Positions 1,939 through 60,197 of a stretch of DNA of 64,000 nt are shown here, piece after piece. This DNA is from a virus. The position numbers were made by a program, and so were the translations under genes. The notes under the pieces are model-generated. The model saw nothing but the letters and a program-made list of their open reading frames with translations. It was not told the DNA's origin and did not search any database. Numbering within the stretch: the stretch's first letter is position 1; every line of letters begins with the position of its first letter. The stretch lies in IMG/VR virus record IMGVR_UViG_3300023174_000151, positions 8,114-72,113 of that record. One strand, 5' to 3'.

Positions 1939-2700
1939 ATGCAACTTCTTAAATTCAGCACAGGCAATGGCAAACTTTCTAATCGATTAATCTTTAATAT
2001 CCCAGCGGGGTACACGTGCCCACATGCTGGTGTATGTAAGACATTTGCTGACAAGACTACCGGTAAGATTACTGATCTACCACAGCTCACAGGTACAATT
2101 GCACCTGAGTTCAGATGCTTTGCTGCCATGGCAGAGACTAGACCTAATGTACGTGATGCACGTTGGTATAACTGGGATCTATTAAGAGAAGCTTTGTACT
2201 CAGGAGAGAATCAAGTCAATCAATTAAGTGCATTAATCAAATTGTCTTTGATTGTACAGACAGATATGAGTCTTATACGTATACATGAGAGTGGTGATTT
2301 TTGGACAGAGAAGTATATGGCAGCTTGGATTAAAGTTGCACAAGAAGATCCTGATACTACCTACTATGCCTACACTAAATCACTAGGTATGTGGCTTAGC
2401 TTGCGAGATAGTATACCTAATAACTTTATGTTGACCGCATCTGTGGGTGGCACACTTGACTACTTACTTCCTAAGTATCCGGATGTGTTTAAACGTATAG
2501 CTTATGTTGTATACACAGAAGAAGAGGCGGCTACACGTGGATTAGAGATAGACCATGACGATAGTCATTGTTTAGGAGATAAACCGTTTGCACTATTGGT
2601 GCATGGGTCCCAACGAGCAGGGTCTGACGCAAGTAAAGCACTTGCCAAACGAAAGAAGGATGGTGGTTTTGTTGGTTACAACAAGAAGAAAGTAGCATAA
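1939..2700 (+). CDS. gp88-like phage protein (Cys-rich, radical-SAM-like fold)
   Basis: N-terminal GNGKL, TCPHAGVC...CFA, RIHESGDF and YAYTKS motifs typical of gene product 88 proteins. Confidence 0.7.
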   Translation: MQLLKFSTGNGKLSNRLIFNIPAGYTCPHAGVCKTFADKTTGKITDLPQLTGTIAPEFRCFAAMAETRPNVRDARWYNWDLLREALYSGENQVNQLSALIKLSLIVQTDMSLIRIHESGDFWTEKYMAAWIKVAQEDPDTTYYAYTKSLGMWLSLRDSIPNNFMLTASVGGTLDYLLPKYPDVFKRIAYVVYTEEEAATRGLEIDHDDSHCLGDKPFALLVHGSQRAGSDASKALAKRKKDGGFVGYNKKKVA

Positions 2701-2703
2701 AGG

Positions 2704-2731
2704 TTGCGTTCTAACTAAAGGTGTGTACTAT
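2704..2731 (+). promoter_or_regulatory. sigma70-like promoter overlapped by an inverted repeat
   Basis: TTGCGT-N16-TACTAT upstream of the 2757 ORF and the polymerase; AAGGTGTG/CACACCTT repeat at about 2718-2746. Confidence 0.4.
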
Positions 2732-2756
2732 GCTGGTGCACACCTTCAACTAGTTT

Positions 2757-2990
2757 ATGTCCTACGTTATTGCAACCTGGAAAGACAACAAACCATATGC
2801 CATCCATTCCAATATGGAGGCTATGCAATTTGAACTAATACCACTAGACTCACAAGGCGCAATCAATAGAATGTATTCCAACCCACATCGGGCTGGTGCA
2901 CAACAAATCTTGACATGGATTAAAAGCAATGACACAAAACTTAACAGTGAAGACCTCAAAATTTGTGATGAGTCCCAGTTCCGCAAATGA
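2757..2990 (+). CDS. hypothetical protein
   Basis: 77-aa ORF directly upstream of the polymerase. Confidence 0.6.
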   Translation: MSYVIATWKDNKPYAIHSNMEAMQFELIPLDSQGAINRMYSNPHRAGAQQILTWIKSNDTKLNSEDLKICDESQFRK

Positions 2991-5574
2991 ATGTTGGCTT
3001 ATCTTTGATATAGAAACTGACGGATTTTATGATCAAGCTACTAAAACATTCTGCATTGTCATCTATGATGTCACGCGAGCAGAAACTTTTGCTTATGGGC
3101 CTGATCGCATTGATGATGCTATTGCTTATCTGGCAACCGCTGATGTTCTTATAGGACACAACATAATCTTTTATGATCTCCCTGTCCTCCAAAAGCTACA
3201 TTCATTTGTCGCCAAAGCACGCATCATTGATACGCTCATATGTACACGCATCATTTGGCCTAAAGAAAAACTCTATGACCTTGACATAGAACAGTATCCA
3301 AATGTACCAGCGAAGATAAGAGGTAATGCATCACTTAAAGCTTGGGGTTGGCGTCTTGCTGATAACAAGATTGACTTCAAAGACTTCTCTGAATACTCAG
3401 AGGAGATGCTTATGTACTGTAAACAAGATGTCCAAGTAACACTAAAGTTATATAAGCATATTGTGAAGGAGAAGTATCCTGAATCAGCGCTTAGACTTGA
3501 GCACGACTTCGCACTTGCAATTAATAAACAGATTAGAGCCGGTGTTCCATTTGATGTGGACGCCTGTCTTGATCTAGTAGATAACCTTAGAAAAAAGAAA
3601 GTAGAACTAGAAGAACAATTAAAACAAATTTTTCCACCTATTAAACATAAGACTTGGTTTACACCTAAGGTGAATAATACTGCCCGTGGTTATGTGAAAG
3701 ACGTACCATTTGAAAAAACAATAATAGAAGAATTCAACCCTGGTTCACGTAAGCAAATTGTTGAGCGACTCAAGAGTAAGTATGGGTGGGAACCAGAGAA
3801 GACAACAGAGAAAGGTAATCCAATTCTTGATGATGAAGTAATTGAAAAGTTACCATACTCAGAGGCTAAACCTTTAGCTGAATACATGTTAATTAAAAAA
3901 CGTTTAGGGCAAATAGAAGATGGTAACAACGCTTGGCTCAAGCTTGTTAATAACAACACTGGTCGTATGCACGGTGATGTTATTACTAACGGTTGTATTA
4001 CTGGTCGTGCAAGTCATCGTCATCCCAACATGGGTCAAGTCCCTGCTGGTTATTCACCTTATGGTAAAGAGTGTCGTGCGTTATTTCATGCGCCCCAAGG
4101 ATGGGACATGATTGGTATAGATGCCAAGGCTTTGGAGCTGCGTTGTCTTGCTGGTTACTTAGCTTATTGGGATCAAGGTGAATATGCCAAGCTTGTTATT
4201 AATCCTGAATCAGATATACATACCATTAACCAAAAGTTATTTGGTGTAGAAACCAGGGATATAGCTAAGCGTTTACTTTATGCTTGTGTTCCTACTGATA
4301 TAACAACAGTGCTTACAAAAGAAGGATGGAAAACATATGATGAATTAAAGGTTGGTCAATTAGTTTTAACTTACAACGAAGAAAAAGAAATAAAAGAATG
4401 GAAGCCTATTCTTGAAATCATACTTGAACATGAAGATGATGTTTGGCAAATGCAACATAATCATTCATTCAAAGTACAAGCTACCGCTGACCATCGGTGG
4501 TATGTAAAGAAACGTAAACGTAATAGAAATGTATCTTGCGGTTGGAGCACGGGTAAAAATTATATGGTGTCTAAAGTTGAAACAACAACAGAAATAAATA
4601 CTGAATCTAATATTATTGTTAATGCCCTATTAGTTGAACCTGAATCTTTGCCAATTGACATTGATTGGAAGTGGCAAAAATATGGTACAGATTGGACTAA
4701 AGTTATTTTAAAAATGAACCAAGCCCAACGTAAAGCTTGGCTATCTGGATTCATAATTGCTGATGGCTTTCAATCATGTAAACCAGATCAAAAAGAGAAA
4801 TGGCATTGGACACAAATACGTAATGAACATTATGAAGCAGCTTTAGTTGCTTCTTATCTGGAATTTCCAGGGGTAATACATGTTGCTAAGCCATCACTCA
4901 ATGCTAGTGGTACTACACAAATGCATGTGAGCATTGCAAATAAAGGTCATGTTACTGGACAAAAATTACAAAAGACTTATATAGGAAAGAAGAATGTATT
5001 TTGTATACGTACCGAAAATAAATCTTTTGTTATGCGCCAAGGGGATTGTATTACCATTACAGGAAATTGTTTATATGGTGCAGGTTCTTTGAAGATGGGA
5101 GGAATTATTAATCCGCATGAAAAAGATGAAACAGTTTTGCGTAATCTAGGAAAAACTGCAATGAATTTATTCCTTAAAGGTGTGCCTGCATTAGCTGAAC
5201 TTAAAACAAAGATTGAGAGTTACATTTTGACTCGTCAACATTTAATTGGTCTTGACAAACGTGTCTTGTATTGTCGTTCACCTTTTAAAGGTTTGAATGT
5301 GTTGTTACAATCAGCAGGTGCAATCCTAATGAAACAAGTTGTAATAACAATACATAAGAACATCGAAACAAACTTGTCCTTACCCCATGGTCAGGAGTGG
5401 GAACAAGTCTTGATGGTGCATGATGAAGTTCAATTGGTTTGCAACCCTAAATATACAGAACAGATTAGAGAACAAGCTATGCTTGCCTTCCCTCAAGCAC
5501 AGGAATTCTTTGAGTTCCTTTGTCTTATAGAAGGAGATTCTCGTGTAGGATCTGACTGGTCAGCGACACACTGA
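2929..5574 (+). CDS. polA: family A (T7 gp5-like) DNA polymerase with 3'-5' exonuclease, intein-containing
   Basis: ExoI FDIETDG, ExoII GHNIIFYD, ExoIII YCKQDV; TGRASH; motif A DAKALELR; motif B RDIAKRLLYA/CLYGAG split by an intein; motif C VHDE. The true start may be the ATG near 2968. Confidence 0.95.
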   Translation: MTQNLTVKTSKFVMSPSSANECWLIFDIETDGFYDQATKTFCIVIYDVTRAETFAYGPDRIDDAIAYLATADVLIGHNIIFYDLPVLQKLHSFVAKARIIDTLICTRIIWPKEKLYDLDIEQYPNVPAKIRGNASLKAWGWRLADNKIDFKDFSEYSEEMLMYCKQDVQVTLKLYKHIVKEKYPESALRLEHDFALAINKQIRAGVPFDVDACLDLVDNLRKKKVELEEQLKQIFPPIKHKTWFTPKVNNTARGYVKDVPFEKTIIEEFNPGSRKQIVERLKSKYGWEPEKTTEKGNPILDDEVIEKLPYSEAKPLAEYMLIKKRLGQIEDGNNAWLKLVNNNTGRMHGDVITNGCITGRASHRHPNMGQVPAGYSPYGKECRALFHAPQGWDMIGIDAKALELRCLAGYLAYWDQGEYAKLVINPESDIHTINQKLFGVETRDIAKRLLYACVPTDITTVLTKEGWKTYDELKVGQLVLTYNEEKEIKEWKPILEIILEHEDDVWQMQHNHSFKVQATADHRWYVKKRKRNRNVSCGWSTGKNYMVSKVETTTEINTESNIIVNALLVEPESLPIDIDWKWQKYGTDWTKVILKMNQAQRKAWLSGFIIADGFQSCKPDQKEKWHWTQIRNEHYEAALVASYLEFPGVIHVAKPSLNASGTTQMHVSIANKGHVTGQKLQKTYIGKKNVFCIRTENKSFVMRQGDCITITGNCLYGAGSLKMGGIINPHEKDETVLRNLGKTAMNLFLKGVPALAELKTKIESYILTRQHLIGLDKRVLYCRSPFKGLNVLLQSAGAILMKQVVITIHKNIETNLSLPHGQEWEQVLMVHDEVQLVCNPKYTEQIREQAMLAFPQAQEFFEFLCLIEGDSRVGSDWSATH
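4285..5067 (+). mobile_element. intein (261 aa) in polymerase motif B
   Basis: Starts CVPTDITTVLTKEGWK; block B TADHRW; one LAGLIDADG-like WLSGFIIADG; ends ITITGN before Cys+1. Removing it restores AKRLLYACLYGAG. Confidence 0.9.
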
Positions 5575-27327: not shown

Positions 27328-27657
27328 TTAATTGTTCCAGGGGATACCCTGTGCATTTGTTGGATGTAGTTTCTGTTCGATCTGAGCAGCTAATGCTGTG
27401 GCAATATCAGAAACCTGTTCTTCTCCCAGGGCATCCTGCACCCAACCTACGACAGTTTCTTTGGTTAAATTTTCGTAAGGAATAAAATTCTCTGGATCTT
27501 CAGCAACAGTAAAACCAATGCTGCCGTAGCAGCCAGCACTCTCACCTTGATCTTGTAAATTTACTGTCCAGTGTGCGGTATATACAGCACCATCTCTTAG
27601 ATGACGTTCGAGTTGAGCAATATTCCATTCAGGTGTAGCAGGAGTAACGTCAGTCAT
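27328..27657 (-). CDS. tail-fibre-associated small protein
   Basis: WNIAQLER...VYTAHW...FIPYENLTKETVVGWV...GIPW; this type of protein usually sits next to tail-fibre genes. Confidence 0.6.
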   Translation of the reverse strand: MTDVTPATPEWNIAQLERHLRDGAVYTAHWTVNLQDQGESAGCYGSIGFTVAEDPENFIPYENLTKETVVGWVQDALGEEQVSDIATALAAQIEQKLHPTNAQGIPWNN

Positions 27658-27688
27658 AAAACTCTTTTTTCTTATTATAGGTCAGTTT

Positions 27689-28543
27689 TTACAATTCTGG
27701 CATTTCGTATTCTTTTGTGCTGTTGCAATAGTGTTTAAAGATGATCTCACTTGTGTTCCCTGCCCATGATGCTACCTGTGGTACAGGAATACCAGCTTCT
27801 ATCCAGCAACTGATCGCAGTGTGGCGACAATCGTAGGGACGGTATAGGTGAGAAATTACTCTTGTGTCATGTAAAGGCTTTAGTTTTTTACGGAAGTAAC
27901 TTTGAAAAGCTACTCGATCCCAAGGAAAAATAAAATCATTTTCCTTTGGTACTTTTTCAAGAAGCTCTTGGCACTTGTTGTTGAGTGGGACCCAGCGTTT
28001 CTTGTTGGTTTTAGTACTGTTCTTTAAACCGTGTGTAAGGGTGTAGTTCTGATGTACAAGAATCTTATTTTCTTTAATATCATCCCAGCGTAAAGCCCGC
28101 ACTTCTCCTGTACGCATTGCTGTTTGAAGCATGAATTCTGTGTACCAAGACCAATTAACATTCCTATATGTACGCTTTGCCGCTAATGCGGCTAACACTA
28201 TACCTATTTCATTTCTAGGAATAACAATAATCTCTTCATCTTTCTGTGGCGGCTTAGGCATTTTAAAGCTAGCCAAAGGATTCTTGTCCATATGTCCTAC
28301 ATCTTCTTGTGCTGCCCATTTGTACATTGTTTTTGCGTACATCGCTACACGCCTGGAAGCAAGCACAGGCTTTTCTCCCAGTATCCAGATCATGACCTTT
28401 CGTGCTTCGCTGATGTCTTGTACTGGACAACGGGATAACCATTTTGTGGTTTGCCTGTAATCAGATGTAAGGCTAGTGGGACACAGCGAAATTGAACGTT
28501 CTTCCAGGAAGGCGTTCCATAATTCTTTGAGTTCTAGTGCCAT
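27689..28543 (-). CDS. tyrosine recombinase/integrase (284 aa)
   Basis: TAMRTGE (Arg I), KT, RPYDCRHT (HxxR variant), WAGN and KHY (catalytic Tyr). Confidence 0.9.
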   Translation of the reverse strand: MALELKELWNAFLEERSISLCPTSLTSDYRQTTKWLSRCPVQDISEARKVMIWILGEKPVLASRRVAMYAKTMYKWAAQEDVGHMDKNPLASFKMPKPPQKDEEIIVIPRNEIGIVLAALAAKRTYRNVNWSWYTEFMLQTAMRTGEVRALRWDDIKENKILVHQNYTLTHGLKNSTKTNKKRWVPLNNKCQELLEKVPKENDFIFPWDRVAFQSYFRKKLKPLHDTRVISHLYRPYDCRHTAISCWIEAGIPVPQVASWAGNTSEIIFKHYCNSTKEYEMPEL

Positions 28544-28566
28544 GGGATTGAGTGGTGTAAAGGGTT

Positions 28567-28595
28567 ACACTACGCTGTTACGCACTACTGGTCAA
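28567..28595 (-). promoter_or_regulatory. putative recombinase promoter containing two GTAGTG half-sites
   Basis: Minus strand TTGACC-N17-TAGTGT; GTAGTG occurs twice. Confidence 0.45.
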
Positions 28596-28614
28596 TCCCT
28601 GTCTTTGCTACCAT

Positions 28615-28643
28615 AAAAAAAGGACGGCTGTTACCCCGTCCTT
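28615..28643 (-). terminator. intrinsic terminator (minus strand)
   Basis: AAGGACGG-N8-CCGTCCTT followed by a T run. Confidence 0.55.
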
Positions 28644-28651
28644 ACCTTCTC

Positions 28652-29401
28652 ATGGATAGCCTAACACCCTCTGACTCATTTGTTGTTCGTGTATGGAACG
28701 ACACTCCGATCTCTCGACGCACCAGCGATAGTTACGTTAACGCCACGGCAATGTGCCGAGCCAACGGCAAACGGTGGACCAAATACCGCGAGTCGGACCG
28801 GGCTAACGAGTATTTGGAAGCCCTTTCGACCGAAGCCCGAATTTCGGTCCACGCTTTGATCGAGTCCCGCGCCGGAGGTATTGATGGGGGCGAAACCTGG
28901 ATTCACCCCCAGGTTGCTATTGACTTGGCTCGCTGGATTAATGCACCATTCGCAGTGTGGATGGATGGTTGGTTTCTTGAACAATTTGAAAATACACAAA
29001 AACAAAAAGCTGAACCACAACCTGCAATTTCTGGCGCAAACATACTTAACTTGTTAAAAGAATCTGTAGATTTTATTAAAGAGTTAGGGTGCCTTGAAGA
29101 TAGGGATTGTATTTTGTTTTCAGATTTAGCTAGAAATAACGCAATGCGTGTTAACTCAGACTTTCTTCTTCCCCCTGGGGACGAGGAAATAACCATAAGT
29201 GATGCTTATCTAGAGTTATTCCAAAAGAATTTACCACGCAATCAAATGAGTAATGTTGGTAAATTTGTTGCTCAAAAATACCGTGTTGAGTTTAAACAAG
29301 AGCCGCCAACACGTATTCAATATGTAGATGGCGCTCCAAGGAGAGTTAAAAGCTATCAAAAAAACTGGTTGACTTCAGTGCTTACATTACTTAAAGATTA
29401 G
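28652..29401 (+). CDS. KilA-N domain protein (antirepressor-like)
   Basis: YVNATAMCRANGK and GGETWIHPQVAIDLARW. Confidence 0.85.
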   Translation: MDSLTPSDSFVVRVWNDTPISRRTSDSYVNATAMCRANGKRWTKYRESDRANEYLEALSTEARISVHALIESRAGGIDGGETWIHPQVAIDLARWINAPFAVWMDGWFLEQFENTQKQKAEPQPAISGANILNLLKESVDFIKELGCLEDRDCILFSDLARNNAMRVNSDFLLPPGDEEITISDAYLELFQKNLPRNQMSNVGKFVAQKYRVEFKQEPPTRIQYVDGAPRRVKSYQKNWLTSVLTLLKD

Positions 29402-29670
29402 TTGTTTCAACCTGCTCGTCAATCTCCTTAGCGTCAGGGGGAATTGTATTTAGAACATATTGAGAAATAACGCGGTAACAGCCCAATGCTTCTTCCGTGT
29501 CCATTCCACCATTTACTAGATCAACAGCAGCTTGCAGGACGTCGTTTTGTTGTGGTGTCATTTGATGTTCCCGTTCGGGTAGAAAGTCGGATATCTTCCG
29601 ATTATGTGGCCAAAACTTACCGTTCGGTAATAATAAAATTAAGTCTAGTGTTGTTTAGTCAGGATGTAGG

Positions 29671-30006
29671 TTAGGTAAAAAACGTAAACCAAGTTCTTAT
29701 GGCATCACCTGTAGCTGTACCTGGTGATGTACGTACTGCTTTTAATAATTGTTTAGGGTTAGTAAACAGTTGTGAGCCTGTGTCCTGGTACAACGTAAAC
29801 CACACACCCTCGGTATTGTGTGTACCAGGGGGGACATTTGCGAATACGCGAAAGCTACCACCGTCAAATGTACGACTTACTCCAGCAGCAGGTGGTACCA
29901 CACCACAAGCTTTAAGTACGGATGCCTTGAGTACCGACTCAGGAATAACAGCTAGTTGGCGCCAGGAGGGTTGAGTTCCTGTAACTGAAGTGTCGTCAAT
30001 AGACAT
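29671..30006 (-). CDS. hypothetical protein
   Basis: 111-aa ORF. Confidence 0.5.
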   Translation of the reverse strand: MSIDDTSVTGTQPSWRQLAVIPESVLKASVLKACGVVPPAAGVSRTFDGGSFRVFANVPPGTHNTEGVWFTLYQDTGSQLFTNPKQLLKAVRTSPGTATGDAIRTWFTFFT

Positions 30007-30166
30007 TGCTTGCCCTAACTAGACTTTTCATAGAATAGCCTTTTGTTAAAATCGTGAAAAAGCAAGTCTAGCAAACAAAAAATGTACCTACCAGACCTAC
30101 GGTGTGCAAAAACATTATGTTCAGTAAGTTGAACACTACGTCAGTTACTGTCCGCGTTGGTGAACA

Positions 30167-30183
30167 GTAGTGGCGTTGACTAC
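30167..30183 (-). other. putative recombination core site C
   Basis: GTAGT-CAACGCC-ACTAC, perfect inverted arms with a 7-bp spacer; overlaps the TAG of ORF 30180-30356. Confidence 0.6.
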
Positions 30184-30356
30184 TCAACTACAGGCAGAGG
30201 TTCACCAAGTGACTCCAGCCAGCAAATTTGGCACCAATAGCCTTCGTGACTTGGAATAGTGCTCACAATTGTGTGGCTGTGAATCCCGTGCTTTGGGCAA
30301 TCAATCTTTGGTGCTTGGTAGCCGACTGCTAACCTGGGGTAATCTTGTTGGGTCAT
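30180..30356 (-). CDS. small zinc-finger protein (58 aa), putative cassette gene
   Basis: Hand-translated MTQQDYPRLAVGYQAPKIDCPKHGIHSHTIVSTIPSHEGYWCQICWLESLGEPLPVVE (CxxH...CxxC). Confidence 0.6.
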   Translation of the reverse strand: MTQQDYPRLAVGYQAPKIDCPKHGIHSHTIVSTIPSHEGYWCQICWLESLGEPLPVVE

Positions 30357-30375
30357 GGTGGTATGGCGAGGGTCA

Positions 30376-30392
30376 GAAGAGAAGGTGACTAC
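30376..30392 (-). other. putative recombination core site B
   Basis: GTAGT-CACCTTC-TCTTC; overlaps the TAG of ORF 30389-30616. Confidence 0.5.
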
Positions 30393-30616
30393 TTACCTAC
30401 TTCAATGGCATCCGTGAGTGGTGTCAAGTCTTCTGTTGTCCAGAAGGGTTTGGCAACCATTAGCTCTAGGTGCTCTACATTACGCTTGATTGTGTCGAGT
30501 TCATTGGAGGTACGGCTGGGCTTGGCGATCAGCTTGTTGATGAGACGTACGCTGTCAAGGGCAGCGGAATAGTGTTGAGCAATTTGCTCAGCAGTCGGGG
30601 CTTCCAGGATTGACAT
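30389..30616 (-). CDS. small protein downstream of the tail fibre, possible fibre accessory
   Basis: 75 aa; follows the tail-fibre stop directly. Confidence 0.65.
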   Translation of the reverse strand: MSILEAPTAEQIAQHYSAALDSVRLINKLIAKPSRTSNELDTIKRNVEHLELMVAKPFWTTEDLTPLTDAIEVGK

Positions 30617-30638
30617 TTGGCTCTTTGGGGAATGAAAG

Positions 30639-33476
30639 TTAAGCGCCCTTGAGGGCAGCTAGTTCTAATTGTAACTCTTTAACTATAATAGTTAATTCTT
30701 GTACGGCATTTACCAGCACAGGAATCATGTTTGACTGAGCAAAGGTATATTGATTAGGATCGTTAGTGTCAACAAGATTAGTGTAAGAGGCATCAAAAGT
30801 TTCAATAGTTTCTAAGACTTCTTGAGCTATAAAACCTGCGGCTTGTTTACCTTGATCAGCATCAGTGTGACGTAGATTCCATTCAAATTTACGGGGTTTT
30901 AGTGCAGCAATAAAATCCAAGCCAAGCGTTAAGTCTTGAATGTTAGCTTTATCACGGGCATCTGAAACAAAAGCCCAAGCCGATGCTACACCTTGGAAAC
31001 GCGCCACAACACTACCGTTGTATATGCTAACTTCATTGTTAACAGTTGCTGACGACCCAACAGATTGATAACCAATGAATATATTGTTGCTGCCAGTGGT
31101 GTTTGCGTTGGTGCCAATGCCATGTCCGGCACTGTATCCATTAGCAGTGTTGTAGTTACCAGTGGTGTTGGAGTAAAGGGCACTTAGTCCATTAGCAGTG
31201 TTGTATTCACCAGTGGTGTTGGAGTAAAGGGCACTGTATCCATTAGCAGTGTTCTGGGTACCAGTGGTGTTGGAGTAAAGGGCACTGTATCCATTAGCAG
31301 TGTTGTAGTTACCAGTGGTGTTGGAGTAAAGGGCACTGTATCCATTAGCAGTGTTGTAGTTACCAGTGGTGTTGGAGTAAAGGGCACTGTATCCATTAGC
31401 AGTGTTCTGGGTACCAGTGGTGTTGGAGTAAAGGGCACTTAGTCCATTAGCAGTGTTGTATTCACCAGTGGTGTTGGAGTAAAGGGCACTGTATCCATTA
31501 GCAGTGTTCTGGGTACCAGTGGTGTTGGATTTAAGGGCACTGTATCCATTAGCAGTGTTGTAGTTACCAGTGGTGTTGGAGTAAAGGGCATTTAGTCCAA
31601 CCGCTGTATTAGAACTTATTGCCCCTGCACCACGCCCTACGGTTATTCCATAAACTAGCGCATCGCTATTCACTTGCAGGAGGTTGGCGCCAGACGCACT
31701 AGACGTGCCAACTAACAGTCTCCCGGAGCTGTCGATGCGGGCGCGTTCGGTGGTAGCTGAATAATTGCTTGCGCCACCGGTAGCAAAAATAAGATTATTA
31801 CGAGAAAAGAAGCCTAAATCACCATCGCCTGCGTTTACGGCGCCAAGACCGCACAATGTATCGTCACTGGTAGTTCTGCTAAATCGAATACCAGCACCTT
31901 CGCCTGTAAAGTTATCAAGCGTTAATTGCCCAATGCGTGTGTTTATGTTTGTACCATCAGACACAAGTAGTCTTGCGTCAGGCCCAGTAGAGCCAATCCC
32001 TACTTGGCCTGAGGAATTTATGTACATCCGATATGTAGCTGCAGTATTGTCCCATATACCAAAGGCTCCACTAGCATTTACACCGAGCGAGTATTTATTT
32101 GCGCCTGTTCCAGTGTTATCAATAGAGATACATGGAAGATTTCCTGTGAGCTGAAGTTGTTGGCCAAATCCTGCTGTATTAGTAGGCGAACTAGTCCCCA
32201 GACCTAATCGGCCTGAAGAATCCAGGCGCATCCGCTCGACTGCCGATGCGTTATTACTTGCAGTGGTGCAAAATTGGATGTTGCCGTTACCTATTTCGGC
32301 TTCAAGATTGATAAAGCAAGTGGCTGCTCCGGTGTTGACAATCGAGCCATCAACGGGATTGCGGTTTGCCGCTATTTGAGTAGTGTAACCACTGGCACCA
32401 AGAAATGCAGCGCTAGTAGCAGAGTTAATCCTGACTGTTTGTGCAGAGCTTCCGCCAAGGTGTAAGGCTGTACTCGGTGTTGTTCCAATACCAATTCTCC
32501 CACTCGCATCAACAAACAACCGCCCAGTGCCATTAGTTGAGATGGCTAGTTGGTTTGCACCAGGGGAAAATATACCTGTGTCTGGGTCTGAAAGTATGGC
32601 TAGTGACGGGAGTGCGGCTGTACCACTAGCAATAATGCCAGATGTAAAGGTTGCTGTAGTACCTGTTAATGAAGTGAATGTTCCCGTAGGAGCAATAACA
32701 GTTGCACCAGAAACTTGTGTAGTAAAGACTCCTGATGTGAAGGTAGCAGTCGTACCTGTAGTTGTAGTACCTGTTAGGGAAGTAAATGTACCTGTTGTGG
32801 CAATAGCAGTTACACCGGAAACTTGTGTAGTGAAGACGCCAGATACAAAATTAGCAGTCGTACCTGTAGTTGTAGTACCTGTTAATGAAGTGAATGTTCC
32901 CGTAGGAGCAATGACAGTTGCACCGGAAACTTGTGTAGTAAATACACCTGATGCAAAGTTAGCACTAGTACCTGTAATTGTAGTACCTGTTAGGGAAGTA
33001 AATGTGCCTGTTGTGGCAATAACTGTTGTACCAGAAACTTGTGTAGTGAATACACCAGATGCAAAATTAGCAGTCGTACCTGTAGTTGTAGTACCTGTTA
33101 GGGAAGTAAATGTTCCTGTAGGAGCAATAACAGTTGCACCGGAAACTTGTGTAGTGAATACACCAGATGCAAAATTAGCAGTCGTACCTGTAGTTGTAGT
33201 ACCCGTTAGTGAAGTAAATGTTCCTGTTGTGGCAATAACAGTTGCACCGGAAACTTGTGTAGTGAAGACGCCAGATACAAAGTTAGCAGTTGTACCAGTA
33301 ACAGTTACGCCTGAGATTGTTGTACCGCCTCTAATTACATCTCCAGAAATTGTTCCAGTTGCGGTTATGTTTCCTGTGAAGGTAGGATTTTGAACTAAAC
33401 CAGAAAGTGAAATACTTTTATCTACGCCATTATCGGTAAACGTAACTGTGTCAACTTTGATAATTCCGTAAGGCAT
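30639..33476 (-). CDS. tail fibre / receptor-binding protein with C-terminal S74 intramolecular chaperone
   Basis: Thr/Gly-rich 36-aa repeats; ERMRLDSSGRLGLGTSSP-type modules; 17-aa NTANG repeats; SDARDKANIQDL...GFIAQE; terminal coiled coil. Confidence 0.88.
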   Translation of the reverse strand: MPYGIIKVDTVTFTDNGVDKSISLSGLVQNPTFTGNITATGTISGDVIRGGTTISGVTVTGTTANFVSGVFTTQVSGATVIATTGTFTSLTGTTTTGTTANFASGVFTTQVSGATVIAPTGTFTSLTGTTTTGTTANFASGVFTTQVSGTTVIATTGTFTSLTGTTITGTSANFASGVFTTQVSGATVIAPTGTFTSLTGTTTTGTTANFVSGVFTTQVSGVTAIATTGTFTSLTGTTTTGTTATFTSGVFTTQVSGATVIAPTGTFTSLTGTTATFTSGIIASGTAALPSLAILSDPDTGIFSPGANQLAISTNGTGRLFVDASGRIGIGTTPSTALHLGGSSAQTVRINSATSAAFLGASGYTTQIAANRNPVDGSIVNTGAATCFINLEAEIGNGNIQFCTTASNNASAVERMRLDSSGRLGLGTSSPTNTAGFGQQLQLTGNLPCISIDNTGTGANKYSLGVNASGAFGIWDNTAATYRMYINSSGQVGIGSTGPDARLLVSDGTNINTRIGQLTLDNFTGEGAGIRFSRTTSDDTLCGLGAVNAGDGDLGFFSRNNLIFATGGASNYSATTERARIDSSGRLLVGTSSASGANLLQVNSDALVYGITVGRGAGAISSNTAVGLNALYSNTTGNYNTANGYSALKSNTTGTQNTANGYSALYSNTTGEYNTANGLSALYSNTTGTQNTANGYSALYSNTTGNYNTANGYSALYSNTTGNYNTANGYSALYSNTTGTQNTANGYSALYSNTTGEYNTANGLSALYSNTTGNYNTANGYSAGHGIGTNANTTGSNNIFIGYQSVGSSATVNNEVSIYNGSVVARFQGVASAWAFVSDARDKANIQDLTLGLDFIAALKPRKFEWNLRHTDADQGKQAAGFIAQEVLETIETFDASYTNLVDTNDPNQYTFAQSNMIPVLVNAVQELTIIVKELQLELAALKGA
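31128..31610 (-). repeat. 51-bp coding tandem repeat, about 9.5 copies
   Basis: NTANG(Y/L)SALYSNTTG(NY/TQ/EY) units, nearly identical in DNA. Confidence 0.92.
32533..32549 (-). other. putative recombination core site A, inside the tail-fibre ORF
   Basis: CTAGC-CATCTCA-ACTAA encoding L310-AISTN, just downstream of the N-terminal repeat region. Confidence 0.5.
32650..33300 (-). repeat. 108-bp (36-aa) coding repeats, about 6 copies
   Basis: ANF(V/A)SGVFTTQVSGATVIA(T/P)TGTFTSLTGTTTTGTT. Confidence 0.9.
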
Positions 33477-33515
33477 TTTGTGTTCCTTGTTTTTTCTTTA
33501 TTTTAACCGAAAAAA

Positions 33516-34058
33516 CTAAACAAGGATGATTAAAGGGCCTTTGAAATTTAAAACTGCAAATTGTCCGTAAAATTGTTTTGCAGCTAAATCATAAGCTTTA
33601 GCTGCATCTTCTTCTTTATGAAATCTTCCAAGTTCTTTTGGTTTACCGTTAATTACAATTCTTGCACGCCACTTGTTTCTAGGCTTATGCCAGTAAACAC
33701 CTTTATACTTGCTTGTTTTTTTCTCTTTTATTGCAGGAGTTAATTGTCGGTTATGACAATTTGATGCAGAAGTTGCAAGGCGTAAATTCCCAATATTATT
33801 ATTTTGTTTATTTTGATCGATATGATCTATTTGTAACTCTGCAGGATCTTCGTCAAAATAAAGAGCCCAAACAAATCGGTGGCACGCCCAAGATTCTTTT
33901 TTGTACTTAACATACCAGTATTGTCCATTTCTTATACCACCTGCGGGCATCCCAACGTTTTTGCCTTTCTTCCATAAGAGTCCAGATGGGCTATCTTGAG
34001 AGATTTTAAAAGCAAGGGATAGTTCTTTGAGCAGCGGTAAAGGCTTTGACTTGACCAA
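33516..34058 (-). CDS. HNH-AP2 homing endonuclease
   Basis: CHRFVW and IDHIDQNKQNNNIGNLR (HNH); SKYKGV...WRARI...LGRF...AAKAYD (AP2). Start probably the TTG at 34058, after a TATACT box. Confidence 0.88.
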   Translation of the reverse strand: MVKSKPLPLLKELSLAFKISQDSPSGLLWKKGKNVGMPAGGIRNGQYWYVKYKKESWACHRFVWALYFDEDPAELQIDHIDQNKQNNNIGNLRLATSASNCHNRQLTPAIKEKKTSKYKGVYWHKPRNKWRARIVINGKPKELGRFHKEEDAAKAYDLAAKQFYGQFAVLNFKGPLIILV

Positions 34059-34096
34059 GTTGTTTTGGACGGGCTTTATAGTATAAACCAAAACCG

Positions 34097-35878
34097 CTAT
34101 AAAATAATCAAAGGGCCACGGATAACAAATCCACTGGTACTGCCCGAGACAACGCCAGAACAAATTAAAGCAGGAGAAGCACCTGATACTGTTGTTATAT
34201 GAAGAGTGCTTCCTGTCAGAGTAGTAAATAAACCTGTATTACCTGTTATTGTTGTGCCTGAAACCTGTGTAGTAAATACACCGGATACAAAATTAGCAGT
34301 TGTACCAGTAGTTGTGGTACCTGTTAAGGAAACAAATGTTCCAGTGGTTGCAGCAACTGTTGTACCTGTAAATGTCTGTCCACTAACTGTTCCTGTAACA
34401 CTGATACCTGAGCTAAAAAACCCTGAACCAAGCGTAGAGGTATTACCTGAAAAAACTAAACCTCCTGAATAACTTTGGTTAACTGCATTGATGGTCGTAA
34501 AATTACCAGTTGCTGCAGCAAACGTAGTACCTGTGAGATTAACAAAATCTCCTGATGTGCCTTGAATTAAGTTACCTGTAATTGTTGCGCCAGAAGCACT
34601 GGTTGTAAATACAGCAACTTGTCCAGTTACAGACGTAAAGGAACCTGTGTCTCCTGTGACGAGTGTTCCAGATACACGTGTTGTAAATGTTCCGGTAGCT
34701 CCTGTAACAGATGAAAATGCTGCTACGTCACCAGTAACAATGGCACCTGAAACTTTAGTTGTGAAATTACCAGATACACCATTAACTACTGAAAATAAAC
34801 CAGATGTTCCAGTAATAGTTACGCCTGAAATATTACTTGTAAATACTCCAGAAACACCTGAAACAAAAGTAGCTGCAACTGTATTCCCTGTTACAAGTAA
34901 ACCTGATACACGATTTGTAAATGTACCTGATACACCTGTTAATTGTGTAATGTTTCCTGTGTCTCCAATAATGGATGCCCCTGATAAGAATTGTGTAAAT
35001 ACACCTGAAACACCTGTAACATTACCAAATGAACTATTGTTTCCCGTAATCGTTGCACCAGATAACCTGGTTGTAAATACACCAGACACTCCAGTGATAT
35101 TACTCACTAAGGTTGTATCACCTGTAATCGTTGCTCCTGAAAGCTGACTAGTAAAAACACCTGAAACACCAGTAACTGTACTGAATTTAGCTGTAGTTCC
35201 GGTTACCGTAGTGCCAGATAATGTTCCTGTGACTTGTACGCCGGAAGCAAATTGGGCAAGTCCAGTAACTGTTAGGCCACTTGCTACGGAGAGATTTCCG
35301 GTTACGGCTAAAATAGGTATATTTAAAGTTTGGAAAGTTCCTGTTGTAGCTTCTACTGTTGTTCCTGTAATTGTTGTTCCACTTAAATTAATAAATGTTC
35401 CCGAGGTTGCAAGTATCTGCCCACCAGTTATTGTGGTTCCTGATAAATTTTGAAATCTTCCACTTGTAAATAAACTAGATGTTCCTGTGGTTGTTGTGGT
35501 TGTGGCTGTAACTGCATTGACAAAAGTACCTTGTAAATATGTACCTGTTACTGTTGTTCCGCTTATAACGCCGCTAACAGTAGCGTTATTTTGTACTAGG
35601 AGACCACTAACGGTTGTTAAACCGGAAGCTGTAATTGTGGAAAAGGTACTAGTACCGCTTACAGAAAGATTTCCAGTAACTGTAATATTTCCACTAAAAG
35701 TAGCACCACTAGTAGAAGGATAATAAGTGTCAAGATAATCTTTGAATTGTATAAATGTAATTTTTTTATTACGTAACGTTGGATCCACTTCAAAAACGTG
35801 GACAAGCGTTAGCAAGTCTTCTTCGTCAATTTGGTTTCCGTCAATAGATGGAAACTCACTTATTCTACGGTTTGCCAC
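34097..35878 (-). CDS. tail fibre/tail-associated repeat protein
   Basis: 593 aa; MANRRISEFP N-terminus; about 26-aa GVSGVFT..SGATITG repeats. Confidence 0.75.
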   Translation of the reverse strand: MANRRISEFPSIDGNQIDEEDLLTLVHVFEVDPTLRNKKITFIQFKDYLDTYYPSTSGATFSGNITVTGNLSVSGTSTFSTITASGLTTVSGLLVQNNATVSGVISGTTVTGTYLQGTFVNAVTATTTTTTGTSSLFTSGRFQNLSGTTITGGQILATSGTFINLSGTTITGTTVEATTGTFQTLNIPILAVTGNLSVASGLTVTGLAQFASGVQVTGTLSGTTVTGTTAKFSTVTGVSGVFTSQLSGATITGDTTLVSNITGVSGVFTTRLSGATITGNNSSFGNVTGVSGVFTQFLSGASIIGDTGNITQLTGVSGTFTNRVSGLLVTGNTVAATFVSGVSGVFTSNISGVTITGTSGLFSVVNGVSGNFTTKVSGAIVTGDVAAFSSVTGATGTFTTRVSGTLVTGDTGSFTSVTGQVAVFTTSASGATITGNLIQGTSGDFVNLTGTTFAAATGNFTTINAVNQSYSGGLVFSGNTSTLGSGFFSSGISVTGTVSGQTFTGTTVAATTGTFVSLTGTTTTGTTANFVSGVFTTQVSGTTITGNTGLFTTLTGSTLHITTVSGASPALICSGVVSGSTSGFVIRGPLIIL

Positions 35879-57533: not shown

Positions 57534-60197
57534 TTAAAAATCTAGGTGTAATTGACCTTTCCGTGCTAGACCGTTTACTAACCACACAAGGGCATCCGCG
57601 CAATCATCATGACTACTTACGCCGAAGTTCGTGAGTTCCTCGAAGAGATTTGTGAAGTTCCTAAACCGATTAAAAATTATTTTTCTATCTTCAAACATGC
57701 CCATAATGCCGCGAAACCTTGCAAGCTTGTCTGCACGGAAACCTTTGACGGGATGCCACAAAATATTGTAGAGACCTTCTTGATTTAAACAAACTCTTTT
57801 GAAGTCTGCTTCCAGGGATGCCTGGTACTGTACAGCTTCAGACCATATGTCAACTGTTGCAAAAGTCGGGAAGTAATTATTGTTTTCATCTTTACCAAGA
57901 ATAGACCAATCGTTAAGAAGTTCTTTAAGTACGTCAAGTTTTTCTAGATTTCCCATGACTCGTATTCGTCTGTAATCAATAATATGAATCTGATCGCCGA
58001 TACGTCCACCTAGTACCATAACGGTGTAATCATTCTTTTCTTTGACGCCAGCAGATAGGTCAACACCAACGCCAAGAGTATCAAACTCCGTTGCAATTTC
58101 TGCTTTAACTATTAGTTCTGGTGCCAAGGAAAGTTCGTTTTGTCTAACGATTTGATTCATGTATTGAAAAGAGAAGGCAATAGGTGCCTGTCGTTTCTTT
58201 TCCTTTAGGTATTCCAAAGACCACATTGCAGGCCAGTAGGATTCTTCTTCTCCTGTTATGCGATTGTTCTTAATTGCAGGAAGAACAATCTGCATCCAAT
58301 TATTTTGTTCATTAAAAGTTGTCGCATGAATGTCATCATGTCGGAAGCGTGTACCAAGACATATTGCTCGTGCGCCTTCAAACATAGTAGGTGCAATCAC
58401 AGCATTCCAGTTCTCTTGCATTTGTTTTCTAATGTCTGGATTTGAGATATCTGCCGAACTTTTTATGGCGTCATCTATCATTACTAAATGAGATCGCTTG
58501 GAGGTAACTGAACCCTTAAGTCCTGCAGCACAGAGTGTAAACTGTTCATCACCAGTTGTATCAATACCCGCAAAGCGATGATCTATTGACCAGTATTCAT
58601 TACTAGTTACGTTCTTCATTAGACGTACAGTAGGAAAAACTTCTTGGTATCGTTTACTTTCAATGATGCGTTTGATGGTAGCACTTTTGGATCGTGCAAT
58701 ATCAACTGTGTATGACAAGTAAAGAATCTGTAGAGGACGTTTAGCTTTAGTGTGAATACCAATAGCCCATGCCGTAAGCAAACCCAAGACTGTGCTTTTG
58801 GCCGAATTTTTACTGACGATATAATCTTTTGTTAAGAATGTATGACACTCATCCTGAACCTCTATGCAACGTACCTTTTCTTCAAACGAAGGTTTAATAT
58901 CTACAATGCCACGGCAAGGAAGGTATTTAGTACAAGGAGCATACCTCAGTGCTTTACGCTCCAGGGAGAACGGTCTAATCTCAGGGTGTAATTTTATTCC
59001 TACTTTGTAAGACGGTGTTGTTGTACGGGTTTTTACTCCGTTGGGCAAGGTATAAGAATTAAACTGTGCAATACGTCTAGTTGCAATACCTCCTAATGAT
59101 TGAACTAGTTCAATAATGTTGTCTACAAGTTGCTGAGATGTAGTACAAAAAGAAACAGAACCAGAACTAGATACCGTACCGTCCGTATCGAGTAAACCTT
59201 GTAGCAACGCCTCACGATCAGCAACAGAAGAAAATAAGTATTCTTTTGGAATAAATTTTGATACTGATGTTTTTCCGTACAAGCCAAGTTTTTTAAGATT
59301 TCTTTTTACAGGATTTGGTGTCCCACAGAAAAGACTGCCTTTAACATGCGAAATACGATAATCGTACTTAGAAGATTTCTTGAACGTGTAGTCTTTAGGT
59401 AAAAGTTGAGCGCAACGTTCAATCAATTCTGGATCAGCGCTAGTTATTGTTAGGTTTCCACTGCTTAAGGAGCCATCTCCAATTAAAACACCGAGTAAAT
59501 ACGGATCAATTAAAAGTTCTTTTTCTGGATATTGTACTGGTTCCGTCACGGGAATATAGTAACGAGCATAGCCCTTGCTGTCCAACCAAGGTTTTTCTTC
59601 CGGTGAACAGGTTGCAGTAATACGTTGACTTGGAGAACTAACTTTACCGTTTCCTTTCATTCCAATTGTTTTTTGTGTACGAATTTCATTAAGAGACATA
59701 ACACGCCATTCACCTTTGGCGTCAGAACCTACACGCCGCACCTTCCATAGATGTTGATCGTCACAACGTACGGATGAACCATCTGTATAGGATATTTCCC
59801 AAGTTGGAGACGATGCGTAATCGGATATATCAATTACTTCTGTAATTTGTCCCTTCTCAGAAAAAACTAAATCACCTAATTGTAAATCGCCAATGGGCAC
59901 CCATCCGTTAGGAGTTGCTACTGGCATTGAAACAGCAAGTGGTCCCCTTGGTGCCAATAGATCGACGTTTGGTCCAGCAATATGCAGAAGGCAACTACTG
60001 TCTTCTTCTGTTATGAAATGCTTATGCCATTCCAGGTGATGTTCAGCGGGAGGCTTGTCAGCTACGTATTCACAAAAGAAACCAAAGTCTTCTTGCGCAA
60101 ACTTAAGAGCATCTACATTCTTGGGTATACGTATTTGTTGGTTCCGCGCAGCGGCTTTTGCATTACGTCGATAAGCAAGGTGTGTATAGCTAGGCAC
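57534..60197 (-). CDS. terL: terminase large subunit, intein-containing
   Basis: Walker A APRG/SAKST split by an intein; Walker B VMIDD; GTRF; nuclease GVDLS and HDDCADAL. Confidence 0.92.
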   Translation of the reverse strand: MPSYTHLAYRRNAKAAARNQQIRIPKNVDALKFAQEDFGFFCEYVADKPPAEHHLEWHKHFITEEDSSCLLHIAGPNVDLLAPRGPLAVSMPVATPNGWVPIGDLQLGDLVFSEKGQITEVIDISDYASSPTWEISYTDGSSVRCDDQHLWKVRRVGSDAKGEWRVMSLNEIRTQKTIGMKGNGKVSSPSQRITATCSPEEKPWLDSKGYARYYIPVTEPVQYPEKELLIDPYLLGVLIGDGSLSSGNLTITSADPELIERCAQLLPKDYTFKKSSKYDYRISHVKGSLFCGTPNPVKRNLKKLGLYGKTSVSKFIPKEYLFSSVADREALLQGLLDTDGTVSSSGSVSFCTTSQQLVDNIIELVQSLGGIATRRIAQFNSYTLPNGVKTRTTTPSYKVGIKLHPEIRPFSLERKALRYAPCTKYLPCRGIVDIKPSFEEKVRCIEVQDECHTFLTKDYIVSKNSAKSTVLGLLTAWAIGIHTKAKRPLQILYLSYTVDIARSKSATIKRIIESKRYQEVFPTVRLMKNVTSNEYWSIDHRFAGIDTTGDEQFTLCAAGLKGSVTSKRSHLVMIDDAIKSSADISNPDIRKQMQENWNAVIAPTMFEGARAICLGTRFRHDDIHATTFNEQNNWMQIVLPAIKNNRITGEEESYWPAMWSLEYLKEKKRQAPIAFSFQYMNQIVRQNELSLAPELIVKAEIATEFDTLGVGVDLSAGVKEKNDYTVMVLGGRIGDQIHIIDYRRIRVMGNLEKLDVLKELLNDWSILGKDENNNYFPTFATVDIWSEAVQYQASLEADFKRVCLNQEGLYNILWHPVKGFRADKLARFRGIMGMFEDRKIIFNRFRNFTNLFEELTNFGVSSHDDCADALVWLVNGLARKGQLHLDF
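58806..59942 (-). mobile_element. class 3-like intein (379 aa) with LAGLIDADG endonuclease
   Basis: Starts PLAVSMPVATPNGW; block B CDDQHLW; LLGVLIGDG and LLQGLLDTDG; block F VRCIEV; ends IVSKN before Ser+1. Confidence 0.88.

Follow-up and report, generated by a model that had tools for sequence, protein, structure and literature searches.

Integrons keep gene cassettes in arrays and consist of an integrase (IntI), an attI site, and attC sites, which are long and folded. In other systems, namely Gin of Mu, Cin of P1, Rci of the R64 shufflon, and Int1 of the haloarchaeal virus phiCh1, the recombinase inverts DNA between inverted sites and alternative 3′ segments are held in one genome. In this work, a stretch of 64,000 nucleotides (nt) of virus DNA (the window) was analyzed, in which an integron-like system had been predicted between a tail-fibre gene and a tyrosine recombinase, with three short sites A, B, and C at which fibre tips and small genes would be exchanged. 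By comparing the window with related phages, sites B and C were found to belong to a family of 19-nt elements placed at the stop codons of genes. Short motifs at gene junctions are also known from other phages. The promoter-early stem-loop (PeSL) of T4-type phages is described as a short, conserved intergenic motif concentrated where small non-essential genes form hyperplastic regions; close relatives differ by insertions, deletions, and replacements whose junctions coincide with these motifs, and genes were proposed to move by exchange between nearby copies (PMC2839356, PMC4122927). The SAS and ESAS of Cluster K mycobacteriophages appear, in excerpts of the source, as repeated junction motifs in one orientation, some of them with imperfect inverted repeats around a variable spacer (PMC3203893). 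For Synechococcus phage S-LBS1, a part of the original description names a different 14-nt repeat as the attachment sites proposed by its authors (PMC6157547). As far as our searches reach, the element family itself is undescribed in the literature on related phages and on recombinase-linked tail fibres.

The window comprises bases 8114–72113 of the single 72,113-bp virus record IMGVR_UViG_3300023174_000151, i.e., 64 kb of a genome carrying psbA. In addition to psbA, PHROG and Pfam matches were obtained for DNA polymerase, primase, large terminase, major head protein, endolysin, and tail fibre, and the nucleotide matches of the window are weak and to Synechococcus phages. Judged by its genes, the genome is that of a cyanophage. 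A scan of IMG/VR for the integrase gave 80 loci with identities of 63–99%. Homologue loci on metagenomic phage contigs bear L-numbers (L082 comes from a complete 76.9-kb record with terminal repeats), and G005, a 74-kb record, and G007 are complete relatives. We hypothesize with moderate confidence that B and C are copies of a lineage-wide, stop-anchored gene-junction element of 19 nt, which marks exchange points in a hypervariable accessory operon. This operon spans the region from the tail fibre to the integrase, DUF7936, and endolysin in a large group of phages of freshwater picocyanobacteria, both phages of ~58–90 kb like that of the window and the siphovirus S-LBS1. Elements of one family sit at gene ends with a strand bias, follow a conserved order with position-specific spacers, and join flanking genes in a combinatorial manner.

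The element was recognized as a recurrent motif at the stop codon of whichever gene precedes the integrase, the 130 nt upstream having been read in about 70 loci. Its consensus, weighted over 100 distinct contexts, is AGTAGT-C-N5-C-ACTAcT, 19 nt with 6-bp inverted arms and a 7-nt spacer that starts and ends with C, and the arm-spacer-arm layout predicted from the three sites holds for this consensus. The coordinates and sequences of the sites were all correct (A, CTAGCCATCTCAACTAA, 32533–32549; B, GTAGTCACCTTCTCTTC, 30376–30392; C, GTAGTCAACGCCACTAC, 30167–30183; all on the minus strand), but the inverted 5-bp arms are perfect only in C (5/5) and reach 3/5 in each of A and B. A position matrix was built from the 100 contexts, which stem from other phages and include no window sequence. 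When the genome was scored on both strands (~144,000 positions), C took rank 1 with 21.5 bits and B rank 2 with 20.9 bits, the next-best match having 16.1 bits, and site A was found at rank 9 with 11.5 bits, in the noise tail. B and C are real members of the family because they hold the first two ranks with a matrix from other phages and because the family is biased in strand and place. The claim of three co-oriented members of one site family therefore stands for B and C and is doubtful for A.

At 16 bits or more, there were 53 forward and 0 reverse matches in 72 loci whose integrase is at least 73% identical, and 24 against 1 in 15 loci with the 58-amino acid (aa) gene, although these strand counts are partly circular for the loci on which the matrix was trained. 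Five matches at this threshold, on the convergent strand, were found in nine loci with integrases of 63–65% identity, and none in 44 loci of other lineages (271 kb) that hold homologues of the 75-aa gene. On the strand of the query gene, the loci hold 71 copies of five 10-mer variants (AGTC plus ACCTTC, AACGCC, CACGTC, TTTGAC, or CCCTTC), against 8 on the opposite strand, and the 10-mer AGTCACCTTC has 35 occurrences on the query-gene strand. Three further copies lie on the minus strand of the window genome, two of which are sites B and C. The 10-mer variants fall in 63 distinct contexts.

The association with gene ends is seen in 93 distinct contexts, where TAG is present in 77 and an open frame of at least 40 codons is closed in 55; for comparison, TAG stops 10 of the 65 long open reading frames (ORFs) of the window genome. 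An ATG follows within 10–39 nt of the element in 48 of the 93 contexts. In dozens of related contigs, as well as in S-LBS1, the element is placed at gene ends between the tail fibre and the integrase or DUF7936. The spacers within one locus all differ (repeats in 0 of 21 loci having at least two elements), and their order is conserved: CCTACTC after the fibre, CATTACC after the 58-aa gene, then CGCTTCC and CACCTTC, followed by CCACGTC or the integrase promoter. At a lower threshold, a sequence inside the fibre gene comes first, which reads AGTAGC-CATCTCG-ACTAAT in most fibres. The spacer class of site C is also present in L014, L034, L036, L054, L056, L059, and L082. Moreover, the sequences that follow one and the same upstream gene end were of at least seven kinds, and one downstream gene was preceded by five different upstream ends. 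Among pairs with the same 10-mer that share the downstream but not the upstream flank (n = 28), 27 diverge at –1 to –4, and those sharing the upstream but not the downstream flank (n = 13) diverge at +10 to +26.

G005 has a second element array 19 kb from its fibre array (L142, G005:C1:29500–35500, reverse strand, ORFs 2469–3589). It holds three tandem paralogues of an MTQEHP...PPPELI family, the first two of which are each followed by a stop-anchored linker.

The element may have two functions. It may serve as a cistron-junction signal, i.e., a stop codon, a short G-poor linker, and the next start codon, which would be kept for expression. It may also act as a crossover point between otherwise unrelated neighbours, since it is the sole sequence that they have in common, and the ~100-nt island of the fibre gene that holds site A could be used likewise. 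Co-infecting phages would make the exchange via homologous or short-homology recombination, which the HNH homing endonucleases of the arrays might stimulate, and the integrase would be cargo of the array and not its engine. A conserved RNA stem is unlikely because the arms lack covariation (3.94 paired positions of 6 against 3.955 at random; 628 of 1000 shuffles reach the observed value) and both window sites fold poorly: site C at –4.7 kcal/mol (z –0.43) is no better than its shuffles, and site B does not fold at all. On these grounds, and with no Rfam match, an RNA hairpin was rejected as the principal explanation of the element. No promoter-like or terminator-like site coincides with B or C.

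In the window, the order on the minus strand is HNH-AP2, tail fibre, 75-aa gene, 58-aa gene, hairpin, 111-aa gene, and 56-aa gene, and the block continues with KilA-N (on the other strand), hairpin, tyrosine recombinase, DUF7936, and endolysin. Scans of this block for tRNA and Rfam families gave no match. Its features are the following:

33516–34163, minus strand: HNH-AP2 homing-endonuclease-like gene (Pfam HNH_3 and AP2, PHROG 99), just upstream of the fibre gene

30639–33476, minus strand: tail-fibre gene, 945 aa, an ORF with Pfam Peptidase_S74 (2.8e-10) and PHROG tail fibre/spike families

32533–32549, minus strand: site A, in-frame coding sequence of QLAISTNG in the fibre island, with weak resemblance to the element

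30389–30616, minus strand: 75-aa gene, co-inherited with this type of fibre tip

30375–30393, minus strand: site B, extended, AGTAGT-CACCTTC-TCTTCT; its TAG is the stop of the 75-aa gene

30180–30356, minus strand: 58-aa gene with a Cys/His pattern, a candidate zinc finger only

30166–30184, minus strand: site C, extended, AGTAGT-CAACGCC-ACTACT, whose 6-bp arms are perfect and whose TAG ends the 58-aa gene

30062–30100, minus strand: terminator-like stem-loop, 16 pairs and then a T run, closing the fibre/75-aa/58-aa transcription unit

29671–30006, minus strand: 111-aa gene, backbone, with an amino-acid identity of 93% in L002 and 98% in L082

29391–29561, minus strand: 56-aa gene, backbone, its 3′ end partly repeated beyond the KilA-N insertion

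28652–29401, plus strand: KilA-N gene, an optional single-gene insertion (Pfam KilA-N 2.4e-18)

28620–28643, minus strand: terminator-like stem-loop, just upstream of the integrase promoter region

27689–28543, minus strand: compact two-domain tyrosine recombinase, 284 aa (Pfam PF00589 2e-14; PHROG 1)

27328–27657, minus strand: DUF7936 gene, backbone (Pfam 1.6e-32)

The order fibre, a variable part of 0.1–2.5 kb, integrase, and DUF7936 recurs across loci. Several details of the original prediction were borne out here: the TAG stops of the 75-aa and 58-aa ORFs lie in B and C, respectively, the sites are 2157 and 209 bp apart, site C lies 1624 bp from the integrase start (given as about 1.6 kb), and site B, read in the frame of site A, is open and in frame with the ATG of the 58-aa gene. 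The extended site B ends 19 nt before this start.

The two units that the sites were thought to delimit, i.e., the fibre tip with the 75-aa gene (unit 1) and the 58-aa gene (unit 2), proved to be separable and compositionally foreign modules. The G+C content at third codon positions (GC3) is 0.383 in the fibre tip, 0.553 in the 75-aa gene, and 0.492 in the 58-aa gene, and 0.29–0.33 in backbone genes; the overall contrast is 0.38–0.55 for modules against 0.19–0.33 for the backbone. In L002, the nearest relative, the flanks are ~92% identical at the nucleotide level, with homology reaching up to 32541 and resuming from 30007, and between these ends L002 has another fibre tip together with an HNH gene and further small genes. 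L082 has a different fibre together with the same 58-aa gene, at 97% nucleotide identity over 30359–30169 only, and its backbone is 92% identical from 30138 onward. As exact edges of the units, the sites hold only approximately: the left edge of the 58-aa module is at ATG–3, 17 nt beyond B, and the block replaced in L002 has its right edge 160 nt beyond site C.

Contigs of four metagenome runs (X2, X4, X5, and X6) were aligned on 27600–33600, assembled contigs being known to lose rare forms. In runs X5 and X6, contigs hold the N-terminal part of the fibre and the 58-aa gene (30359–30177), and no contig lies over the fibre tip and 75-aa gene (no cover of 30414–31620), a gap that was used only jointly with the contigs stopping at 30359 and 30177. 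Among the 13 contig joints listed for the four runs, none was of the A/B, B/C, or A/C type, although contigs cannot show rare forms. Parts of the window stretch were found in 20 runs from 10 studies.

Neither small gene matched a Pfam, PHROG, or NCBIfam family. Of the 44 loci with a homologue of the 75-aa gene, 42 have it immediately after a fibre gene that shares the C-terminal repeats, and the other two have at most 1 kb of upstream sequence. The element was rejected as a part of this gene: 0 of 31 flanks read carry it, and the matrix finds none in the 44 loci. Homologues of the 58-aa gene are present in 15 loci. The closest copy, in L082, is without site B upstream and without the arms of site C, and it ends in TAA. 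Site C was rejected as a conserved flank of the 58-aa gene, the downstream flank in 13 homologue loci being a longer linker to the next start. In most relatives (L082–L091), a conserved hairpin (GGGCAG...CTGCCC) lies ~50–95 nt upstream of the 58-aa homologue, and in L006 and L082 a promoter-like stretch, read by eye, stands just before it. The window is without this hairpin module, and the leader of its 58-aa gene resembles a deletion between short repeats.

An invertible fibre switch was rejected as well, all sites and family members being in direct orientation and suitable inverted repeats being absent. A search of 10.3 kb gave 15 inverted pairs of 14–23 nt, which is the estimated chance level (~13 exact 11-mers expected in that stretch), and none of them flanks a second fibre segment. 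One 21-nt pair, 28553–28573 and 32380–32400 (81% complementary), connects the integrase leader with the fibre gene and is within the estimated chance level.

The fibre contains six 36-aa repeats at the N-terminus (108 bp each, 32655–33300), nine 17-aa repeats at 31128–31590, and a C-terminal intramolecular chaperone domain at aa 838–891 (Peptidase_S74). Site A lies at codon 310, 35 codons past the last N-terminal repeat, and GC3 rises there from 0.188 (codons 1–309) to 0.383 (codons 310–945), both as predicted. It is part of a conserved island of ~100 nt around 32480–32590, whose peptide ...SPGA[DN]Q[LV]AISTNGTGRLFV... occurs in 25 distinct fibre sequences, including that of S-LBS1. Synonymous sites vary within the island, and short pieces of it are 85–90% identical at the nucleotide level to the fibre genes of the marine podoviruses S-CBP3, S-CBP4, and S-RIP1. 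Read by eye, the common island sequence and the element consensus agree at 16 of 21 positions. Peptide constraint and the common descent of these fibres account for this resemblance. Site A codes for a conserved peptide and, at 11.5 bits and inside a gene, it is doubtful as a member and was not counted as one. A single fibre breakpoint at site A was not borne out, as nucleotide similarity runs across the site in seven loci (from 32654/32565 to 32482/32504) and the breakpoints or loose ends are spread over ~70 nt (32500, 32504, 32526, 32530, 32541, 32562, and 32565). On alignment, these scattered breaks fit recombination within a conserved island and not one fixed crossover.

Within the array, the integrase, KilA-N, and HNH genes were each recognized as a single-gene insertion that may be present or absent. 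The integrase is precisely absent from L082, from promoter to stop codon, where a 19-nt filler (L082 5935–6067) replaces 882 bp (window 27680–28561), and in run X6 an integrase-less joint from 27679 to 28562 occurs alongside integrase-bearing sequence in one metagenome. Elsewhere, the integrase cassette begins right after an element spacer with a TTGACA box and ends at its own stop codon, after which comes a hairpin; in the integrase-less L090, that hairpin comes just after an intact element. The insertion has an element on one side only and, in the window genome, at neither edge. DUF7936 follows the integrase in most loci and stands directly after the array in the integrase-less L082, L085, L087, L088, and L090. 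A promoter-like sequence (TAAACT/TATAAT box) upstream of DUF7936 (window 27674–27703) is conserved in most loci with or without the integrase.

The KilA-N gene is an 831-bp insertion (28577–29409) relative to L002 and to a contig of X6 joining 28577 to 29409, and both of its flanks align to a segment of ~22 nt from the 3′ end of the 56-aa gene (L002 7947–7968). Homologues of the HNH-AP2 gene lie inside the arrays of L002, L006, L010, L034, L042, L048, L087, and L091. Their positions, beside the fibre or inside the array, differ between phages (L002 6036–6518; L042 6500–6979). Outside the array, the large terminase (57534–60197, 887 aa) and DNA polymerase (2929–5574, 881 aa) are long, with split PHROG matches and endonuclease- or primase-like matches in the middle, as if an insert (intein or endonuclease) were carried.

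Several observations weigh against a junction element that is maintained for expression and exchanged by homology. A start codon within 39 nt is missing in 45 of the 93 contexts, i.e., in about half, so coupling is not the whole story, and in most integrase-bearing loci the element is 60–100 nt upstream of the integrase start (flanks read by eye). On the left side, 27 of 28 pairs diverge within the narrow range of –1 to –4, which is what a fixed crossover would produce. A translation linker has no need of the dyad symmetry that the consensus shows around its 7-nt spacer, an arrangement found in tyrosine-recombinase cores and in the sites of dimeric proteins. Furthermore, an identity of 11–19 nt is short for ordinary homologous recombination. 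The integrase is conserved at 79–84% amino-acid identity in loci L002–L081, against 46–55% for the neighbouring DUF7936 and 39–66% for the lysin. This suggests horizontal spread or unusually strong constraint, and it hints at a special role of the integrase.

The integrase is 77.8% identical over all 284 residues to that of S-LBS1, and the next phage match is 27.5%. A protein search gave 1340 clusters, the best 120 of which are all ~80% identical or more. Arg144, Tyr237-x-x-Arg240, Asn263, and Tyr272 are invariant in 22 sequences (positions assigned by reading the alignment), the two catalytic His positions being occupied by Tyr237 and Asn263, so by alignment the catalytic residues of a tyrosine recombinase appear intact. 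The predicted fold has a core-binding and a catalytic domain and no arm-binding domain, at moderate confidence (mean predicted local distance difference test, pLDDT, 76.5; predicted template modelling score, pTM, 0.56). It matches Tn1549 Int, the lambda Int core, XerA, Cre, and others with no clear nearest relative, and the integron integrase structure 2a3v comes at rank 25, behind Tn1549 Int, XerA, and lambda Int. A sequence search of the PDB with the integrase gave no match, and NCBIfam gave weak XerD/XerC matches far under the cut-off (25.7 against 329.6 bits) and no integron-integrase model.

Such an enzyme could be an ordinary lysogeny integrase acting on a host attB, or a Cre-like enzyme of cyclisation or dimer resolution with one nearby site, and the elements would then be unrelated to it. 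This is a real possibility, to which we give rather less than even weight. It agrees with the PHROG 1 integrase match (3.7e-39), with a gene that forms its own terminator-bounded unit, preceded by a promoter-like hexamer pair seen by eye that fails the prediction criteria, and with its optional presence in the population, as would be the case for an accessory lifestyle gene. Lysogeny was also proposed by the authors of S-LBS1, but mitomycin C gave no evidence of integration of this phage (PMC6157547). Moreover, no tRNA or tRNA-like piece lies nearby, and a scan of 185,579 species genomes, by a method that finds close relatives only, gave one relative, on a 5.9-kb contig of a metagenome-assembled genome (MAG). 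Among the best 120 of the 1340 clusters, the longest contig is phage-sized (82.8 kb).

In the mechanism of the original prediction, the elements are core sites of the compact recombinase, which in cis, or in trans during co-infection, would excise, insert, and swap tips and cargo, with heterospecific spacers preventing self-deletion. Many properties of the family would suit such a role. The inverted arms enclose a 7-nt spacer and lack covariation, which fits a DNA site better than an RNA stem; spacers are never repeated in a local array and keep their order, with the weak in-frame copy in the fibre preceding the array; cargo begins right after the spacer; and the left boundary is tight. The enzyme is of two domains without an arm-binding one, its catalytic Arg, Arg, and Tyr are invariant, and its conservation is unusual. 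The layout of fibre, element, and integrase recurs in S-LBS1, an unrelated siphovirus, and elements, in convergent orientation, lie near the integrase homologues of 63–65% identity too. On the other hand, in neither G005 nor G007 was a match to the integrase or to PF00589 obtained (in the control, the family was recovered from 14 of 14 reference genomes), and both keep high-scoring elements, equal to those elsewhere; in these genomes the element persists independently of the integrase. The one-sided position of the element at integrase insertions, and its absence from both edges in the window genome, speak against this mechanism, as do the spread of the right-side divergence over +10 to +26, the position of the left edge of the 58-aa module, which is past site B by 17 nt and not inside it, and the explanation of site A by a conserved peptide. 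In addition, five different spacers are found in the elements that adjoin integrases of 80% identity, 6-bp arms are short by the standards of a recombinase, and G005 has two directly oriented copies of the same 19-mer at a distance of 18.9 kb, one of them in the fibre array. An integron-like mechanism in which the recombinase swaps cassettes at A, B, and C is not supported, given that elements persist where there is no recombinase, that the integrase is optional, that breakpoints are scattered, and that A/B, B/C, and A/C joints are absent from the contigs; we consider core sites of this enzyme improbable. The fuller version, a natural recombinase-mediated cassette exchange in which heterospecific core sites, including the translated copy in the fibre, allow the conserved recombinase to swap tips and cargo between phages without deletion, seems to us a shade less probable still. 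If it were true, cassette exchange at heterospecific sites would be a first viral example of an integron-like system, directed at host range.

It is very unlikely that the elements are recognition or insertion sites of HNH-AP2 homing endonucleases, whose double-strand breaks would drive gene conversion of the neighbours. HNH-AP2 genes do lie by the fibre or inside the array in the window and at least eight loci. A comparison of L042 with L052 places the start of the HNH cassette of L042 immediately behind the CCTACTC spacer, with an element on one side only, and the elements that abut the HNH gene in L034, L042, and L048 have degenerate left arms. However, this sample is small and read by hand, many element-bearing arrays have no HNH gene nearby, and the many spacers would demand many specificities.

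A chance resemblance of the three sites without shared meaning deserves next to no weight: the invariant-only pattern of the three sites is mildly enriched (3 matches against 0.96 expected; 5 of 100 shuffles reach 3), GTAGTCA has 13 occurrences against 8.9 expected, and site A is only at rank 9, but for B and C chance is refuted by ranks 1 and 2 with the matrix from other genomes and by the strong bias of the family in strand and place. For site A, a chance resemblance is possible. The full degenerate pattern of the three sites was set aside as circular evidence, having been built from the sites it would test.

The integrase and the fibre-proximal array are abundant in freshwater metagenomes (1340 integrase clusters; 20 runs, 10 studies). 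The stop-anchored element gives a handle on how phages trade receptor-binding tips and accessory genes, and it can serve as a simple marker in the search for arrays of this kind. Should it function as an expression signal, these phages, which are largely without Shine-Dalgarno sites, would provide a new type of cistron junction; should the recombinase act on it, the array would represent a new class of viral gene-cassette system.

By comparing the array with integrons, both are co-oriented series of small genes with an imperfectly palindromic site after each, a tyrosine recombinase at one end, and variable content. However, there is no IntI match here and the sites are of 19 nt, whereas attC is long and folded; the recombinase is co-directional, optional, and placed at the array's tail, and arrays persist without it in G005 and G007. 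The defining features of integrons, i.e., an IntI-type integrase, attC, and an integrase on the attI side, are thus absent. With the Gin/Cin, Rci, and Int1 systems, the locus shares a site-specific recombinase beside a receptor-binding gene with a variable C-terminal part, but all sites here are direct and there is no alternative fibre segment. Like the PeSL, the element is found at junctions of insertions, deletions, and replacements between relatives; in the described passages, however, the PeSL is a sigma-70 promoter with a terminator stem-loop that recombines by homology (PMC2839356, PMC4122927), and the element is 19 nt long, contains a stop codon, and has dyad arms with a variable 7-nt spacer, no promoter, and no stable stem. 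Separate promoter/hairpin modules do occur in other loci, upstream of homologues of the 58-aa gene. The SAS, as far as the excerpts of their source go, are likewise gene-junction motifs of one orientation that are conserved with gene families, but they stand just upstream of start codons and genome-wide, and the element is stop-anchored and confined to accessory arrays (PMC3203893). S-LBS1 (MG271909) differs in being a 34.6-kb siphovirus with 60% G+C and no accessory genes between fibre and integrase, but it has the same order of fibre, element, integrase, and DUF7936, and its fibre carries the same conserved island.

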